A stretch of 64,000 nucleotides of DNA from a virus (taxonomy: Duplodnaviria; Heunggongvirae; Uroviricota; Caudoviricetes), in the IMG/VR virus record IMGVR_UViG_3300018481_000002, positions 23,199 through 87,198 of that record; one strand, given 5' to 3'. The position numbers were made by a program, and so were the translations under genes. This document shows, piece by piece, positions 22,797-56,547 of this stretch; within the stretch, counting starts at the first letter, position 1, and each line of letters begins with the position of its first letter. The notes beneath the pieces were generated by a model. It was not told where the DNA came from. It saw only the letters and a program-made list of their open reading frames with translations, and searched no databases.

Positions 22797-23267
22797 CTAC
22801 TCCTCGGTGGTCTTGAACCTGATGAGACCATCGGCCACCGACACCGAGTACACGTCGATGTCCTCTTCCTCCAACGCGGCCTTGATCTCCGAGGCAGACG
22901 CTGACGGGGTGGTGGTGTTCGCAGTGATCTTGCGGACAGTGGCGCTCACTGTCCCTTGCTTGCCCTTGGCGGCACGGATGACAGCGAACTTGCAGTTCCA
23001 GGGGTCGAGTTCGTAGTCGGCTTCGGTCTCGACGATGGGGACGACGTAGGTGTCGGCACCCTTCGGGTCAGCCTGGAACGTCTCAGCCTGCTCCAGTTCC
23101 GCCTCGATCTTCTCGAACTCGGACAGTTCACGCTCACGGAACTCGTAGGGGGTGGTGAGGGTGTCGTCGATCTCGATGTCGAACCCGGACCCGAAGGCGG
23201 CGACGACGGCTGCTCGTTGGCCTGGCTGGCAGGCGATGTAACGCTTCACTGTGGTGCTGGTGCCCAT
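22797..23267 (-). CDS. hypothetical protein (156 aa)
   Basis: ORF trimmed to MGTSTTVKRY with AGGGAGG RBS. Confidence 0.55.
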   Translation of the reverse strand: MGTSTTVKRYIACQPGQRAAVVAAFGSGFDIEIDDTLTTPYEFRERELSEFEKIEAELEQAETFQADPKGADTYVVPIVETEADYELDPWNCKFAVIRAAKGKQGTVSATVRKITANTTTPSASASEIKAALEEEDIDVYSVSVADGLIRFKTTEE

Positions 23268-48051: not shown

Positions 48052-48744
48052 TCAGGCCACCGGCTGACCGGTCACGGCGTCGACCCAGCCCTTGCGGAAC
48101 GCCTTGGCGACGTACTTGTCGATCTGCTTGGGCGTACGGCGGGCCTCGTGACCCTCCGGCAGGGTCGCGTTGGTCTCCGCGAGGTTCTCGCGCAGCCACC
48201 ACTCACGCTTCTTGGTGGCCTGGCCGAACTGGTTGCGCGGGGCACGACGACGACGCTGCTCCGCCTCGCTGGCCTCCTCGAAGGACACCCGCTTGCGGAC
48301 CTTGACCTCGGGCTCGGGGGTCACGACGGCCTTGGCCTTCTTGCCCTTCTTGCCCTTCTTCGCCTTGCCGCCCTGGGACTCGCGGGTCACGGCCTGCGCC
48401 TTGCCCACGATGTCCACACCCTTGGCGCGCTCCACGTTGCGGGAGCCGATGGCCCACGTGCCCACCAGCGGCTGCTTCTGGAGCACCACGGCCTTCGACA
48501 GGTTCAGGACACTGGTGTGGTCCTGCGCCCAGTCGTGGTCGGCGATGAACCGCTCACGGTTCTTGCTGGTCAGGCAGCGGTGACCCTCCACCTGGCCGTT
48601 GACGGCGGGCTTGCGTGCCGCCATCTTGCGGGGCTTGCCCTTGTTGGCCCGCTTGGTCTTCGCGGGCGTGTCCAGGTCCAGCCCGTAGGCCTTGACCAGG
48701 ATCTGCAGACCCTTGCGGGCGAGCGGGGACAGGTTCTTCGACAT
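48052..48744 (-). CDS. hypothetical basic protein (230 aa)
   Basis: ORF track; GAGGAGG RBS. Confidence 0.6.
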   Translation of the reverse strand: MSKNLSPLARKGLQILVKAYGLDLDTPAKTKRANKGKPRKMAARKPAVNGQVEGHRCLTSKNRERFIADHDWAQDHTSVLNLSKAVVLQKQPLVGTWAIGSRNVERAKGVDIVGKAQAVTRESQGGKAKKGKKGKKAKAVVTPEPEVKVRKRVSFEEASEAEQRRRRAPRNQFGQATKKREWWLRENLAETNATLPEGHEARRTPKQIDKYVAKAFRKGWVDAVTGQPVA

Positions 48745-50697: not shown

Positions 50698-51012
50698 TCA
50701 GACGGTGGCGGTGGCGGCCTTGACGGCCGCCTTGGTGAAGGTGATGCCGTCCTTGGCCTTGAGGGCCACGACCGCCTTCACCCACGCCGCACGGGTGTAG
50801 TTCTTGCCCAGCGACGCGCCCAGGGTGGAACGCTCCACCTTGGTCAGCCCACCGAGGACGGTGGCGCTGCGGCGGTTGACCCGCTTGGCGCGCATGTCCT
50901 TGGCGAACGTGTTCTTCTTGGCCTTGGCCTTCTTGGTCTTCGCGGGGACGAGGTCGAACCCCATCTGTGCCGCGAGGGCCTTCAGGGCCTTGGTGTCCTG
51001 CTTCGCGCTCAT
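50698..51012 (-). CDS. small basic protein (104 aa), paralog of 53321..53611
   Basis: MSAKQDTKALKALAAQMGFDLVPAKTKKAKAKK vs MSKQQNTKALQALAAEMGFDLVPAKAKKAKK. Confidence 0.6.
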   Translation of the reverse strand: MSAKQDTKALKALAAQMGFDLVPAKTKKAKAKKNTFAKDMRAKRVNRRSATVLGGLTKVERSTLGASLGKNYTRAAWVKAVVALKAKDGITFTKAAVKAATATV

Positions 51013-52906: not shown

Positions 52907-53188
52907 TTAGGAGGCCATGAGGGCCTTCACGGCGGCGGGGTTGACGGTCCAGCCGGTCTCGGGGGTCCACTCCGAGACCCTGCCCATGCGGGAGTGGTCG
53001 ATGGTGACCAGGTCCCACTGGTCGGAGCGGCCCATCGGGGGCAGGTTGTTGGCGGCCCTGTAGGCGACCACCTCAGCGGTGGGGCCAGCGGTCACCTGGG
53101 CGGCGAGGTCCTGCATGTCCTTCTCGGACAGCCACATCTTGGTCAGGGAGTGCAGGGCGGACGTGGTGGTGCAGCGGACGGTGAACAT
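52907..53188 (-). CDS. hypothetical protein (93 aa)
   Basis: ORF track; GGCCTCCTGGGCC-type RBS region. Confidence 0.5.
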   Translation of the reverse strand: MFTVRCTTTSALHSLTKMWLSEKDMQDLAAQVTAGPTAEVVAYRAANNLPPMGRSDQWDLVTIDHSRMGRVSEWTPETGWTVNPAAVKALMAS

Positions 53189-53207
53189 GGGGCCTCCTGG
53201 GCCTCGG

Positions 53208-53232
53208 GGTCAGGGCCATAGTGGCCCTGACC
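53208..53232 (-). terminator. perfect 10-bp hairpin GGTCAGGGCC-atagt-GGCCCTGACC after 53321..53611; adjacent GGACCGGGCGGTCC palindrome
   Basis: seen directly. Confidence 0.45.
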
Positions 53233-53320
53233 TGGGATGATGGACCGGGCGGTCCAGGGGCGGCACCCCTCCCCGAGGAGGGATGCCGTCGAGTGCTGCC
53301 CGGGCCGTACTGGGGGTGGA

Positions 53321-53611
53321 TCAGAGGTGGCGACCCTGAGCCTTGAACTTCTTGACCGCCTTGGCCCACTGCTTGGCGGTGTAGTTGCCGCTACCACCCA
53401 ACTCGGCGGACAGGGTCTGACGGTGGGCCTTGGTCAGGCCGCCCAGGGGGTTGGCCTCGGCGCGGTTGATCCTGGCCGTGTAGCAGTGCTTCTTCGCGGC
53501 CTTGAGGCCCTTGGGCATCTTCTTGGCCTTCTTGGCCTTGGCCGGGACCAAGTCGAAGCCCATCTCCGCAGCCAGCGCCTGGAGGGCCTTCGTGTTCTGC
53601 TGCTTGCTCAT
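53321..53611 (-). CDS. small basic protein (96 aa), paralog of 50698..51012
   Basis: ORF trimmed to MSKQQNTKALQ; last gene of leftward block. Confidence 0.6.
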   Translation of the reverse strand: MSKQQNTKALQALAAEMGFDLVPAKAKKAKKMPKGLKAAKKHCYTARINRAEANPLGGLTKAHRQTLSAELGGSGNYTAKQWAKAVKKFKAQGRHL

Positions 53612-53874
53612 GGTGTGCCTTTCGTCGTGACTCGACCCGTTGTCGAATCTCGACCGGGTGTGACCCACCCTGTTCGACGGGAGTCTGCGCGAGCGACTTT
53701 CCGTGCCCCCCCGTTTTTCCATGGCTTTTTCACGAGGGGGATTCCATGGAACGCCACGTTCCCGCATACAGCGGAGCTACCTGGGCGTCCTACGTTCGCT
53801 TTGAACACGTGTTGGTATGTACATGGGCCCTCTATGCCCTCGTATGCATGTTCGATGCCGGTGTTCGATGGGGC

Positions 53875-53908
53875 ATTGGTGGGGGTATCCCCGTGTAATG
53901 TTCGGTTT
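53875..53908 (-). promoter_or_regulatory. conserved intergenic element, copy E (partial: ATTGGTGGGGGTATCCCCGTGTAATGTTCGGTTT)
   Basis: shares AAACCGAACA and CCCCCACC blocks with copies A-D. Confidence 0.4.
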
Positions 53909-53950
53909 GAGGGTTCGTGCGGAGCTCTTCGCTCAGGACGCTCGGTTCAT

Positions 53951-54110
53951 GGCCCGGCAGGTGCTAGGCATGGCTCGGTGTGGCGTGGTACGGCGTGGTG
54001 AGGTTGGGCTGGGCCCGGTAAGGCACGGCGTGTCACGGCAGTGCAAGGCGTGGCGAGGTAAGGCGAGGTCTGGCAGGGCGCGGCTCGGCACAGCAAGGCA
54101 AGGCGAGGAG
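53951..54110. repeat. pentanucleotide array 1: about 32 phased GGCNN/NNNGG units (tgtggcgtgg tacggcgtgg ... caaggcgagg)
   Basis: GG recurs every 5 nt across 160 nt; read directly. Confidence 0.6.
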
Positions 54111-54116
54111 AGAACG

Positions 54117-54275
54117 GTGACTGACTTCCCGGATCGGTGTTGGCGGTGTGGTCCTGGCGCGCAGTGGAAGCACTTCATGTCTGGGGTGTCTGGGGGTGGC
54201 TGGTTGTACGCGTACTGCGGGAAGTGCAGGCAGGTGACTCCTGTGGAGCTTCTTGACGGCCCAACCACCTCGTAG
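54117..54275 (+). CDS. possible 52-aa zinc-ribbon peptide (VTDFPDRCWRCG...CGKCRQVTPVELLDGPTTS)
   Basis: GTG preceded by GAGGAG; unique sequence between repeat arrays 1 and 2. Confidence 0.35.
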   Translation: MTDFPDRCWRCGPGAQWKHFMSGVSGGGWLYAYCGKCRQVTPVELLDGPTTS

Positions 54276-54296
54276 GTACATTCGAGGCTGTTTCGT

Positions 54297-54410
54297 TCAA
54301 GGCTGGGCCTGGTTCGGCTGGGCGCGGCTAGGCTGTGCGAGGCTCGGCAAGGCTCCGCCCGGCAGTGCTAGGCGTGGCTCGGTAGGGCTTGGCTCCGCAA
54401 GGCAAGGGTT
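54297..54410. repeat. pentanucleotide array 2 (ctgggcctgg ttcggctggg cgcggctagg ... caaggcaagg)
   Basis: same GGCNN phasing. Confidence 0.55.
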
Positions 54411-54438
54411 CTACACATACGACGCCTGTGGAGGCGAT

Positions 54439-54720
54439 GTGACGGCGACGATCTTGGAGACCGACGTTGACTGGTCGGTGCTGGAAGAAGTCGAGGAATG
54501 CTCCTCGTGCGAAGCGAACGAAGGTGCCTGTCCACGGGTACCCGCATGGTTGCAGGTCACAGCCTGTTGTGGGTTGGAGTGGCGGATCTGCGCTCCGTGC
54601 AAGGAAGCGAACCAGCGGGTGTGTGAGGACGGCGTCTGGAACAACTGGACGGCGCACTGTCCCGGTTGCGGGTGGCGTGGGGACGCCCATCACGGGATGG
54701 TGTGGTGGTTCCCCCTCTAG
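54439..54720 (+). CDS. possible 93-aa Cys-rich protein (..CSSCEANEGAC..CCGLEWRICAPC..CPGCGWRGDAHHGMVWWFPL)
   Basis: GTG after GGAGG (short spacing); unique sequence between arrays 2 and 3; start uncertain. Confidence 0.3.
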   Translation: MTATILETDVDWSVLEEVEECSSCEANEGACPRVPAWLQVTACCGLEWRICAPCKEANQRVCEDGVWNNWTAHCPGCGWRGDAHHGMVWWFPL

Positions 54721-54726
54721 GTTTTC

Positions 54727-54814
54727 GGGGCCAGGCGAGGTTTGGCGATGCTGGGCGATGCTTGGCGCGGCACCGCTGGGCGTGGTTGGGCAGGGCTTTG
54801 CGGGGCAAGGCACG
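54727..54814. repeat. pentanucleotide array 3
   Basis: ccaggcgagg tttggcgatg ctgggcgatg cttggcgcgg ... Confidence 0.5.
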
Positions 54815-54831
54815 GAAGCTTTATCCAGATC

Positions 54832-54859
54832 TTGTAAAGCGCCCTAAAGTTCATAAAGT
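54832..54859 (+). promoter_or_regulatory. sigma70-like promoter candidate TTGTAA-N16-TAAAGT in local AT-richer patch
   Basis: only low-GC stretch in region; 4/6 + 4/6 hexamer match. Confidence 0.2.
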
Positions 54860-54865
54860 CGTGGT

Positions 54866-54945
54866 CCGGCATGGCTCGGCGGTGCCAGGCATGGCGGAGC
54901 GAGGCTTGGCCAGGCAAGGTGGGGCTTGGTATGGCAAGGCAAGGG
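54866..54945. repeat. pentanucleotide array 4 (16 consecutive GGCNN units)
   Basis: ggcat ggctc ggcgg tgcca ggcat ggcgg agcga ggctt ggcca ggcaa ... Confidence 0.55.
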
Positions 54946-54988
54946 CTCAACTACACATAGGCCGGGCTGGCGGCTAACCCAGACATAC

Positions 54989-55180
54989 ATGAAGAACTGG
55001 TCGTTCCACTCCTGCATCCTCGATTCAGACTGCCGTCGATACGGGGCACCCAAGAGGTTCAACTTCGTCACACCCTGGGGTGGCTGGGATGTGGCCCTCG
55101 CACCCGGGTCCCGGTTCGTTGAACGGTCGGGTCGAGTGCGTTGGGTGTCCCGGATCCCTAAGAAGACGCGCCAGGGCTAG
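54989..55180 (+). CDS. possible 63-aa peptide (MKNWSFHSCILDSDCRRYG...)
   Basis: ATG in unique sequence between arrays 4 and 5; contains GGGTGTCCCGGATCC palindrome; speculative. Confidence 0.3.
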   Translation: MKNWSFHSCILDSDCRRYGAPKRFNFVTPWGGWDVALAPGSRFVERSGRVRWVSRIPKKTRQG

Positions 55181-55241
55181 GCACGGGCATGGCAAGTCTC
55201 GGCATGGTGTGGCCGGGCAGGGCAAAGCTGGGCAAGGCGAG
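55173..55241. repeat. pentanucleotide array 5
   Basis: ggctaggcacgggcatggcaagtctcggcatggtgtggccgggcagggcaaagctgggcaaggcgagg. Confidence 0.5.
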
Positions 55242-55249
55242 GGAGTGAC

Positions 55250-55495
55250 ATGAGGGACCTGGTTCGTTGGCTGTGGGAGTCCACCTCCACGACGGAGCGG
55301 GTTCTCATGCTGGCGTTGGGGTTGTGCCTGTCGGTGATGGCGGTCGCGTTGCTGGTTGGGTTGATTTCGGCGGTTTCAAGTTCACCTGACGGGGTATCCC
55401 CAAAATTGGTACCCCACACACGGGTCGAGCAGGTGTACGATCCAAGTACCGCGCCCCCCACCACGCGGTCACCACTGGATGAGGAGCATCCATGA
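55250..55495 (+). CDS. small membrane protein (81 aa), first gene of rightward block
   Basis: ORF track; GAGGGAG RBS; TM segment VLMLALGLCLSVMAVALLVGLISAV. Confidence 0.6.
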   Translation: MRDLVRWLWESTSTTERVLMLALGLCLSVMAVALLVGLISAVSSSPDGVSPKLVPHTRVEQVYDPSTAPPTTRSPLDEEHP

Positions 55496-55767
55496 ACCAA
55501 GAACCCCCCACCCACATCGAAGCCATCTGGTACTCCACAGTCGACAACGCCACCTACGAAGCCTGGGTCGAACGCACCGGACCCTACGACGGCGAACTCG
55601 TCGTCGCCCGAGTCCGAGGCCACGAGATCCACCGCGAACCAACCAAGCTCGCCTTCGGAGCCATCTACGGCCCAGACGTAGACGACGTCGCCACCTGGCA
55701 ACACCGCGTCTGCAACATCATCGACACCATCGCCAAACTCGAAGACGTCCAAGCACACAACCAGTAG
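55492..55767 (+). CDS. hypothetical protein (91 aa)
   Basis: ORF track; ATGA coupling. Confidence 0.6.
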   Translation: MNQEPPTHIEAIWYSTVDNATYEAWVERTGPYDGELVVARVRGHEIHREPTKLAFGAIYGPDVDDVATWQHRVCNIIDTIAKLEDVQAHNQ

Positions 55768-55777
55768 AGGGGGCCAC

Positions 55778-56119
55778 ATGGCCGTCGCATCCCGCAAGTT
55801 CCAGCAAGACATGGAACGCCTGTACGAACAGATGAAAGCCGGAGAAGCCCTCGACCAAGCACGTGCAGCCAAACAAGCACGCACACTCGCAGGCCACACC
55901 ACCCCCCAAGCCACAGCCGCCAAGTACGCCAAGAGCGTCAAAGGCATGCACCCCCAACACGTCTGGCCCACCGCCCAAGTCCTAGACGAACTCACCGAAC
56001 CACCAACCACCCCCCTCCAAATCATGGCCTCCTGCGAACCAGACGACTTCCAAGACAGCGAATGGGAAACCCTCTTCCCCGCCGCAAACTACCCCTACGT
56101 CCAAAAGTACGCACCATAA
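55778..56119 (+). CDS. hypothetical protein (113 aa)
   Basis: ORF track; GAGGGGG RBS. Confidence 0.6.
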   Translation: MAVASRKFQQDMERLYEQMKAGEALDQARAAKQARTLAGHTTPQATAAKYAKSVKGMHPQHVWPTAQVLDELTEPPTTPLQIMASCEPDDFQDSEWETLFPAANYPYVQKYAP

Positions 56120-56316
56120 TGGCCAACCTCAAAAACATGGAACCCGGCCCCAGCTACGACGACGGCAACGTCTATGTCTACGACGACAACACCACCGGCG
56201 ACATCCTCCACATAAAAGACGGCCACGTCATCGCCAAAATCAGGACGAAGGTCCTGCAAAACCCCGGAAATGTGCAAAACCCGGCCTGGAAAATCGCGTC
56301 GAGCGCTACGCGCTAA
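56119..56316 (+). CDS. hypothetical small protein (65 aa)
   Basis: ATG in TAATG overlap; within ORF 56062..56316. Confidence 0.5.
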   Translation: MANLKNMEPGPSYDDGNVYVYDDNTTGDILHIKDGHVIAKIRTKVLQNPGNVQNPAWKIASSATR

Positions 56317-56343
56317 GTAACAACGAAAAGGGGGCCCCGCCGA

Positions 56344-56547
56344 ATGTTCGAAATCGACGAGCTAGGCGAACACATCGGAAAGTTCGCAGGCATGCTCCGC
56401 TGCAACACCTGCGGAGACACCGAACTACTCCACAACGGCGACCACGGGCGCTACCTCAAATCAGGCTGGCCCACCTGCCACGGCCACACCATGCAATGGT
56501 GGACTCAAGCCCAGATCGACGCCGGAGAGATGCCCAATGTGCCGTGA
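56344..56547 (+). CDS. zinc-binding small protein (67 aa)
   Basis: ORF track; CNTCGD..CHGH. Confidence 0.55.
   Translation: MFEIDELGEHIGKFAGMLRCNTCGDTELLHNGDHGRYLKSGWPTCHGHTMQWWTQAQIDAGEMPNVP

Follow-up and report, generated by a model that had tools for sequence, protein, structure and literature searches.

What is carried by the five arrays of phased pentanucleotide repeats that fill the strand switch between two gene blocks of a phage genome, and what would read them? The locus lies in a 64,000-nucleotide (nt) stretch of DNA, hereafter the window (positions 23,199 to 87,198 of IMG/VR record IMGVR_UViG_3300018481_000002, a virus of the class Caudoviricetes); unless the source contig is named, coordinates are positions in this window, and the arrays are given on its + strand. 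The repeats are of the type described in 2026 as the vrRNA of the systems named Viral Interference Programmable Repeat, or VIPR (bioRxiv 10.64898/2026.04.26.720920, 10.64898/2026.04.26.720927), and, judging from their sequence, the arrays are very probably vrRNA-type arrays that a member of the Vipr family is meant to bind. A vipr gene of the known family was found neither beside them nor in the 127 kb of the phage genome that was read, so the reading protein would have to come from elsewhere, and we consider it reasonably likely that these are guide arrays working in trans with a Vipr that is made outside this phage. The repeat type and its mechanism are already known; what is new here is the vipr-less context, the interleaving of the arrays with small open reading frames (ORFs) and the lack of a tail.

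The five arrays together comprise 98 units in which a GGY triplet recurs every 5 nt and is followed by two further positions, N4 and N5. The longest array, A1 (53967-54111, +), consists of 29 in-register GGYNN units, 25 of them with a perfect GGY, and is preceded by degenerate units from 53951 onwards. It is followed by A2 (54301-54410, +; 22 units, 17 perfect), A3 (54729-54818, +; 18 units, 13 perfect), A4 (54863-54947, +; 17 units, 14 perfect) and A5 (55186-55245, +; 12 units, 9 perfect, preceded by degenerate ones starting at 55173). Within each array the 5-nt register is constant, with zero insertions or deletions (indels), and the registers differ between the five arrays, which are separated by gaps of 189, 318, 44 and 238 nt. 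The periodicity is significant against shuffled sequence: the pattern (GGNNN)x7GG matches 10 times in the window and not once in any of 100 dinucleotide-preserving shuffles. A sliding scan of the 64 kb for 5-nt GGC periodicity returned the five array sites only, and no array of at least 8 GGY units was found in 851 kb of unrelated control loci. The first-pass annotation of this DNA had reported five phased arrays at essentially these coordinates, which is borne out by all of these scans, and had suggested Tandem Repeats Finder as a check, which returned only weak periods of 10-20 nt (63-92% matches, scores of at most 50). Of the gaps, the one of 44 nt is below the lower limit of 70 bp that it had given for the separating segments.

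Conservation within the units is confined to the triplet. Across the 98 units, G1 is kept in 87%, G2 in 98% and Y3 in 95% (C 80%, T 15%), and both N4 (A36/G27/T28/C10%, 0.11 bits) and N5 (A32/T24/G22/C21%, 0.02 bits) are near random, with C depleted at N4. Hence the consensus GGC(A/G)(A/G) that had been proposed for the repeats has to be replaced by GGY-NN. Roughly 16-20% of the units are degenerate, mostly of the form nGC with G1 lost. All five arrays end in GCAAGGC(R): the 3' ends read AGCAA GGCAA GGCGA GGAGA in A1, CGCAA GGCAA GGG in A2, GGCAA GGCAC GGAAG in A3, GGCAA GGCAA GGG in A4 (followed by CTACACATA) and GGCAA GGCGA GGGAG in A5. The 9-mer CTACACATA stands directly behind the GGCAAGGG end and is common to A2 and A4 only (54409-54421 and 54946-54960); it may point to a processing or end signal that these two arrays share.

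VIPR, examples of which come from Escherichia phage SUSP1 and a Pseudomonas fulva prophage, is a minimal system of RNA-guided DNA recognition and a proposed ancestor of the RAMP proteins of clustered regularly interspaced short palindromic repeats (CRISPR) systems (bioRxiv 10.64898/2026.04.26.720920, 10.64898/2026.04.26.720927). The vrRNA consists of 9-16 YNNGG repeats with a conserved GGY, hypervariable NN and often degenerate internal units, and this GGY/NN repeat type has been shown experimentally to be RNA; the RAMP protein Vipr, roughly 20 kDa in size, assembles along this RNA into a helical filament that places one protomer on each repeat and in which G1, G2 and Y3 are flipped out and gripped, contacted by the D-W-R residues of the G-loop, while the NN dinucleotides pair with target DNA of which every third base is skipped (1-nt skip), and binding silences transcription (bioRxiv 10.64898/2026.04.26.720920, 10.64898/2026.04.26.720927). 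Seven types with tailed, staggered, ribozyme-interspersed or single architectures have been distinguished, among which type II has an invariant structured 3' tail after the repeats and other types differ; VIPR is mostly provirus-borne and can block incoming phage, and its natural targets are competing phages, satellites and prophages (bioRxiv 10.64898/2026.04.26.720920, 10.64898/2026.04.26.720927). The window arrays share with vrRNA arrays the tandem 5-nt GGY/NN units, the internal degenerate units and the encoding by a phage, as well as the intergenic or leader location, with several arrays per locus, all on one strand. As DNA arrays they have 12, 17, 18, 22 and 29 units, compared with 9-16 per vrRNA and with up to more than 140 in arrays beside vipr, and, unlike published VIPR, they alternate with small Cys-rich ORFs.

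The same repeats are widespread in viral genomes. An exact scan of IMG/VR for (GGYNN)x7GGY returned at least 120 contigs with 30-71% GC, and all statements on IMG/VR loci in this text refer to the matches listed. In these, the arrays are clustered on one strand and typically have 10-18 units (10th-90th percentile); they are often separated by conserved hairpin-containing spacers, and others are continuous or show 1-nt register shifts. A family of proteins of about 200 aa (members about 175-260 aa) adjoins the arrays in 81-87 of the 120 loci. These proteins carry a GDWRP-type G-loop, and a profile of 70 of them matches chain D of PDB entry 36pp, 'SUSP1 Vipr protein', with an E-value of 1.3e-43; it also recognizes the Viprs of E. 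coli, Mycobacterium and Gordonia phages and loci of 38-70% GC. In the 81 Vipr loci, vipr and array are a median of 14 nt and never more than 710 nt apart, and both are on the same strand in 99%. The 229 arrays of these 81 loci, with 3,325 units, serve as the reference set: position 3 is C in 79% and T in 19%, N4 is depleted in C as in the window, and the 3' end consensus is GGC..GGCaaGGCA.Gg, so that the GGCAAGGC-like 3' motif is common to the window arrays and the Vipr-adjacent ones. Rfam matched no family, the hammerhead included, in the window region 53000-56000 or in ten array-bearing loci. Vipr homologues are also present in Gordonia phages Pipp, UmaThurman, ODay and Ecliptus and in cyanophage Cy-LDV1.

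Among cultured phages, a blastn search with A1 matched arrays in 26 records of Mycobacterium phages, all of the Mattes (Cheoctovirus) type; in each of the 26, vipr lies 0.2-0.3 kb downstream of the array. In Mattes (NC_051681.1, 36784-37711) and 25 related F-type records, a staggered GGY/NN array is followed by gp52 and gp53, both annotated as hypothetical; gp52 is a clear Vipr (E-value 2e-55 with the Vipr hidden Markov model, HMM) and gp53 is vap1-like. The Mattes array occupies an unannotated gap just upstream of gp52 in an early rightward operon. The annotated TTG start of gp52 lies about 50 nt downstream of the array blastn match, where GGY-like units still continue, and the N-terminus of gp52 is probably mis-called.

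The architecture of the window arrays also occurs in bona fide loci. The nearest is the continuous array of L022 (6301-7040), a single array of more than 140 GGYNN units that directly follows vipr in one register, without tails and with sporadic degenerate units. In L044 and L016 the array runs into the ribosome-binding site of vipr, the same placement as that of the window arrays before small ORFs. Staggering through 4-nt GGCA junction units is seen in the Mattes arrays, whereas the window arrays never change register and thus are not of the staggered type. With the high-GC actinophage VIPR loci (L022, Mattes and the 25 related records) the window shares the high-GC, actinophage-like context and the lack of hairpin tails; it differs from them with respect to vipr, which in each of those loci lies on the strand of the array and no more than a few hundred nt away.

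This difference is the first of several that weigh against a guide function of the arrays, and it was pursued over record positions 1-127,086 (88%) of the 144,524-bp source contig (ena:ERZ27251452:k141_6182525, of which the window is positions 16318-80317, reversed), the remaining 17.4 kb being 127,087-144,524. In the six-frame ORFs of this portion the best Vipr HMM E-values were 0.26-0.9, compared with 1e-43 and 2e-55 for the positive controls, the SUSP1 Vipr of PDB and Mattes gp52. In the window, phmmer with every family member, the HMM, hhalign and motif regular expressions matched only the translated arrays; hhalign Vipr probabilities were below 2%, and no G-loop motif is present in coding frames. 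Given the maximum distance of 710 nt in the 81 Vipr loci, the window locus is atypical. A vap1-like gene, sought with a Mattes gp53-like profile (the only vap family searched, present in 25-29 IMG/VR loci), is likewise missing from record positions 1-127,086 (best E-value 0.03-0.18), and so are any further arrays. Nor is there a conserved structured 3' tail, as the 70 nt downstream of the five arrays do not align (fold z-scores from -2.5 to +1.5). Degenerate units are about twice as frequent as in bona fide arrays, where they make up 7-8%, a reference value that is understated because the array caller tolerates only isolated misses, and the NN positions, with a GC content of 0.40, lie at the lower end of what the reference arrays show. 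Finally, exact seeds of 9-10 units from A1, A2, A4 and A5 gave only chance-level matches in viral, metagenome and genome collections (7 matches, with flanking units at chance level on extension), and a local target scan of 1.9 Mb with skips of 0-3 nt was at the null level. The missing targets are weak negative evidence, because the seeds required exact matches, the lineage is barely sampled and even a nearly identical contig of 147,685 bp from the Joint Genome Institute (JGI) was absent among the metagenome loci returned. In favor of guides, no self-target by the 1-nt skip rule was found in 83 kb of the phage, as expected for guides directed against other elements.

If the arrays are guides for a Vipr made elsewhere, they would be expected to work as follows. 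By analogy with the published mechanism, the region would be transcribed rightward and Vipr would polymerize on the array RNA, each unit taking up one protomer that holds G1, G2 and Y3 and keeps N4 and N5 accessible. The successive NN dinucleotides would then read duplex DNA belonging to a competing element, skipping a base at every unit, and transcription there would be silenced upon binding. Most likely, Vipr would be supplied in trans by a prophage resident in the cell or by some other element there; less likely, it would be encoded in the final 17 kb of the contig or have diverged too far to be recognized. The phage would load its own guides into the effector of another element.

The departures from bona fide loci have to be weighed against three other interpretations in which the arrays are, or once were, vrRNA. 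In one of these, about 98 GGY units made early would act as an RNA decoy, an anti-VIPR sponge that soaks up the Vipr of a resident prophage or of the host, and the NN dinucleotides would be irrelevant. The lack of a vipr or vap1-like gene in 88% of the genome, the long (up to 29 units), tail-less arrays in small-ORF leaders that follow promoter-like sites where the rightward block begins, the elevated share of degenerate units and the failure of the target searches are all compatible with a decoy, and such a counter-measure is plausible given that VIPR resides mostly in proviruses and can block incoming phage. However, the NN composition, including the depletion of C at N4, is within the range of real guide arrays, the missing targets mean little in a lineage that, like its hosts, is barely sampled, and no decoy is described in the VIPR papers (bioRxiv 10.64898/2026.04.26.720920, 10.64898/2026.04.26.720927), the one reporting the survey mentioning neither decoys nor orphan arrays; we consider a decoy rather unlikely. 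Still less likely, the arrays are relics of a VIPR locus that lost vipr and are decaying and functionless, or serve as mere leaders of small ORFs. The absence of vipr from the portion searched, the above-normal degenerate fraction and the lack of a conserved tail would be in line with a relic, but under free decay all five positions and the register should be lost to the same degree, whereas G2 and Y3 are kept in 98% and 95% of the units next to random N4 and N5, with zero indels, and the six-frame HMM search found no Vipr-like remnant between the arrays. A complete VIPR system, with vipr in the last 17.4 kb or in the form of an unannotated protein too divergent for the profiles, might be suspected because 12% of the contig lies outside the searched part, most proteins of this phage have no known family, and in L107 and L114 the arrays are found inside tail or head (structural) modules. 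Yet the last 17.4 kb starts within the 3078-aa tape-measure gene, for which reason we take it to be the structural module, and must also hold the capsid and packaging genes; a distance of at most 710 nt holds for all 81 Vipr loci, the ORFs that follow the arrays (52-93 aa) are too short for this family, and the profile recognizes Vipr across hosts as different as E. coli, Mycobacterium and Gordonia and across 38-70% GC. A hidden vipr is accordingly a poor candidate, ranked below the relic, which is in turn ranked below the decoy and, at the top, guides for a Vipr acting in trans.

Two readings that dispense with guide RNA are both very unlikely. In the first-pass annotation the arrays were taken for phased DNA sites at the strand switch that would serve in centromere-like partition, as an iteron origin or for nucleoprotein wrapping. 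The location at the divergence of the two blocks, next to the gene for a basic protein, and a period of half a helical turn (5 nt) would suit such sites, and the idea of phased repeats with one protein subunit each indeed agrees with the known VIPR mechanism, except that the evidence points to RNA and not to DNA. The units share nothing beyond GGY, with only three of five positions conserved and none of the identity expected of iterons; the motif is strand-asymmetric here and in 120 other loci; no Pfam family, and hence no Rep or Par family, was matched in the ten neighboring proteins scanned; and similar arrays elsewhere adjoin an RNA-binding RAMP protein and belong to a repeat type shown to be RNA. 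Even less can be said for a coding reading, in which repetitive peptides made of GxARx-like pentapeptides would extend the small Cys-rich ORFs; a repetitive protein is what the same annotation had named as overturning its view. Some frames are open through the arrays and two run into ORF1 and ORF2 (53817-54275 and 54253-54720), but 5 nt is no multiple of 3, units in each of the three codon phases keep the G2-Y3 core equally well, the gene caller of the contig record left 53899-55249 empty, and the only peptide matches to other loci are translated arrays. A G-quadruplex reading of (GGNNN)n is not needed and leaves the pyrimidine at position 3 unexplained. Rho utilization by the antisense strand, which is C-rich, was weighed as a further reading and set aside. 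The statement that the locus is not a CRISPR array is formally right, given that there are no identical repeats of 23-50 nt with fixed-length unique spacers, although the arrays belong, as predicted from sequence, to a CRISPR-related guide-RNA system.

Two known systems are instructive for comparison. Phage RNA anti-CRISPRs mimic CRISPR repeats. Like these and like orphan phage CRISPR arrays, which could use or titrate the effector of another genome in the same cell, the window arrays would be guide-like repeat RNA without effector genes; the repeat type and the protein family are different. TRAP binds Bacillus trp leader RNAs as an 11-mer ring at 9-11 repeats of the triplet (G/U)AG with 2-3-nt spacing. 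As RNA, the window arrays would resemble TRAP sites in that a conserved triplet recurs every 5 nt in a single strand and each repeat takes up one subunit, and in a placement in 5' leaders that allows the Shine-Dalgarno sequence to be covered. In contrast to TRAP sites, the VIPR triplet is GGY and not GAG or UAG, the arrays of the window have 12-29 units, the VIPR protein is a helical RAMP filament, and the spacer bases carry information.

Arrays without vipr are not limited to the window. Among 98 IMG/VR loci that either contain Vipr or are flanked on both sides by some 2 kb or more, about 17 have arrays and no vipr; examples include L001, L011, L019, L026, L035, L063, L067, L093, L103 and L114. 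In L019, 13 staggered arrays lie between a kinase-like and a ThyX-like gene. Orphan arrays may thus be a recurring, perhaps common class. The VIPR survey began from the protein (bioRxiv 10.64898/2026.04.26.720920, 10.64898/2026.04.26.720927), and a class of this kind is invisible to Vipr-centered discovery, whereas the 5-nt GGY periodicity suffices to find the arrays in raw sequence. In the records of cultured actinophages (Mattes and its relatives), the arrays are overlapped by an annotated gene or left as unannotated gaps. The proposal that an orphan vrRNA cluster of a large, lytic-looking phage acts on the Vipr of another genome, by hijacking it or by RNA anti-VIPR titration, is a tentative one; if true, the hijack or decoy would be the first counter-strategy against VIPR. 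More generally, the locus suggests that guides may travel and act without their effector, and such use in trans, hijacking or decoying would add a new layer to phage-phage conflict.

The region that harbors the arrays, 53612-55249, is flanked by a leftward block, the last gene of which is at 53321-53611 (-), and by a rightward block from 55250. Gene direction and AT skew both reverse at about 53.6-54 kb, so that the strand switch recognized in the first-pass annotation is real, and so are the AT-richer patch (54815-54862) and the small Cys-rich ORFs that it had noticed there. The arrays are on the sense strand of the rightward, early-looking block. A sigma-70-like promoter, TTGACG-18-TACATT (54253-54282, +), is the sole match of the promoter scan in 53000-56500, compared with 0.4 expected from shuffles, and at the usual distance transcription from it would start about 10 nt before A2; a lone GGCTG unit at 54286 is near this expected start. 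A weaker promoter-like site, TTGTAA-16-TAAAGT (54832-54859, +), lies inside the AT-richer patch and at the usual distance would start transcription at the first unit of A4; it was read by eye and, with 8 of 12 consensus positions, is under the cut-off of the promoter scanner. A1 and A5 each extend into the ribosome-binding site of the small ORF that follows. Together with the promoter-like sites ahead of A2 and A4, this arrangement would make the arrays putative leaders and intercistronic parts of rightward transcripts.

Four small ORFs alternate with the arrays or follow them. The product of ORF1 (54117-54275, +; 52 aa) has two CxxC pairs and is zinc-ribbon-like; its GTG start is 5 nt after GGAGAG, with the last units of A1 as the Shine-Dalgarno sequence, and its GC content at third codon positions (GC3) is 0.74. 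It matches no known family and was not predicted by the gene caller of the contig record. ORF2 (54439-54720, +; 93 aa, Cys-rich) follows A2, with a GTG start after GGAGG, and has no known family and no relative in IMG/VR. ORF3 (54989-55180, +; 63 aa) follows A4 and is without a clear ribosome-binding site. ORF4 (55250-55495, +; 81 aa), which has an ATG start and encodes a hydrophobic segment, is the first called gene of the rightward block, and the 3' end of A5 is its Shine-Dalgarno sequence. The GC3 values of the small ORFs, 0.71-0.78, suggest that these may be real genes. Among the products of ten neighboring genes, no Pfam family was matched, and PHROGs gave nothing useful for the neighbors.

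The phage context of the source contig is evident from PHROG matches (ligase, ATPases), a tyrosine integrase, RusA, a RuvB-like ATPase, the tape-measure protein and a Gp80-like protein; two sigma-factor-like proteins and a GH16-like protein, the latter without a relative in IMG/VR, are also encoded. The nearest protein from a cultured phage is that of Microbacterium phage Pumpernickel, and a megablast search of the array region against 50,697 phage records gave no match. A search with an XRE-like protein led to relatives at 66-77% identity on contigs of 112-142 kb; with these, late and regulatory genes are common at 58-78% identity, and the early region is not conserved. Loci retrieved by the sigma-factor scan were rejected as phage relatives, being only 44-52% identical and probably bacterial sigma-factor genes.

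The last gene of the leftward block, divergent from the arrays, encodes a basic, Lys/Ala-rich protein of 96 aa (53321-53611, -), for which the sole match among 5.8 billion proteins was its own sequence. Three paralogues of this kind are encoded in the window, all on the - strand (53321-53611, 50698-51012 and 48052-48744) and none with a Pfam family; they share the N-terminal motif TKALxALAAxMGFDLVPAK..KK, which by eye is helix-extension-helix-like. Two copies of the octamer TTCCATGG, with the palindrome CCATGG inside, lie 25 nt apart (53717-53724 and 53742-53749) in the control region that separates A1 from this divergent gene, and the pair could be an operator.

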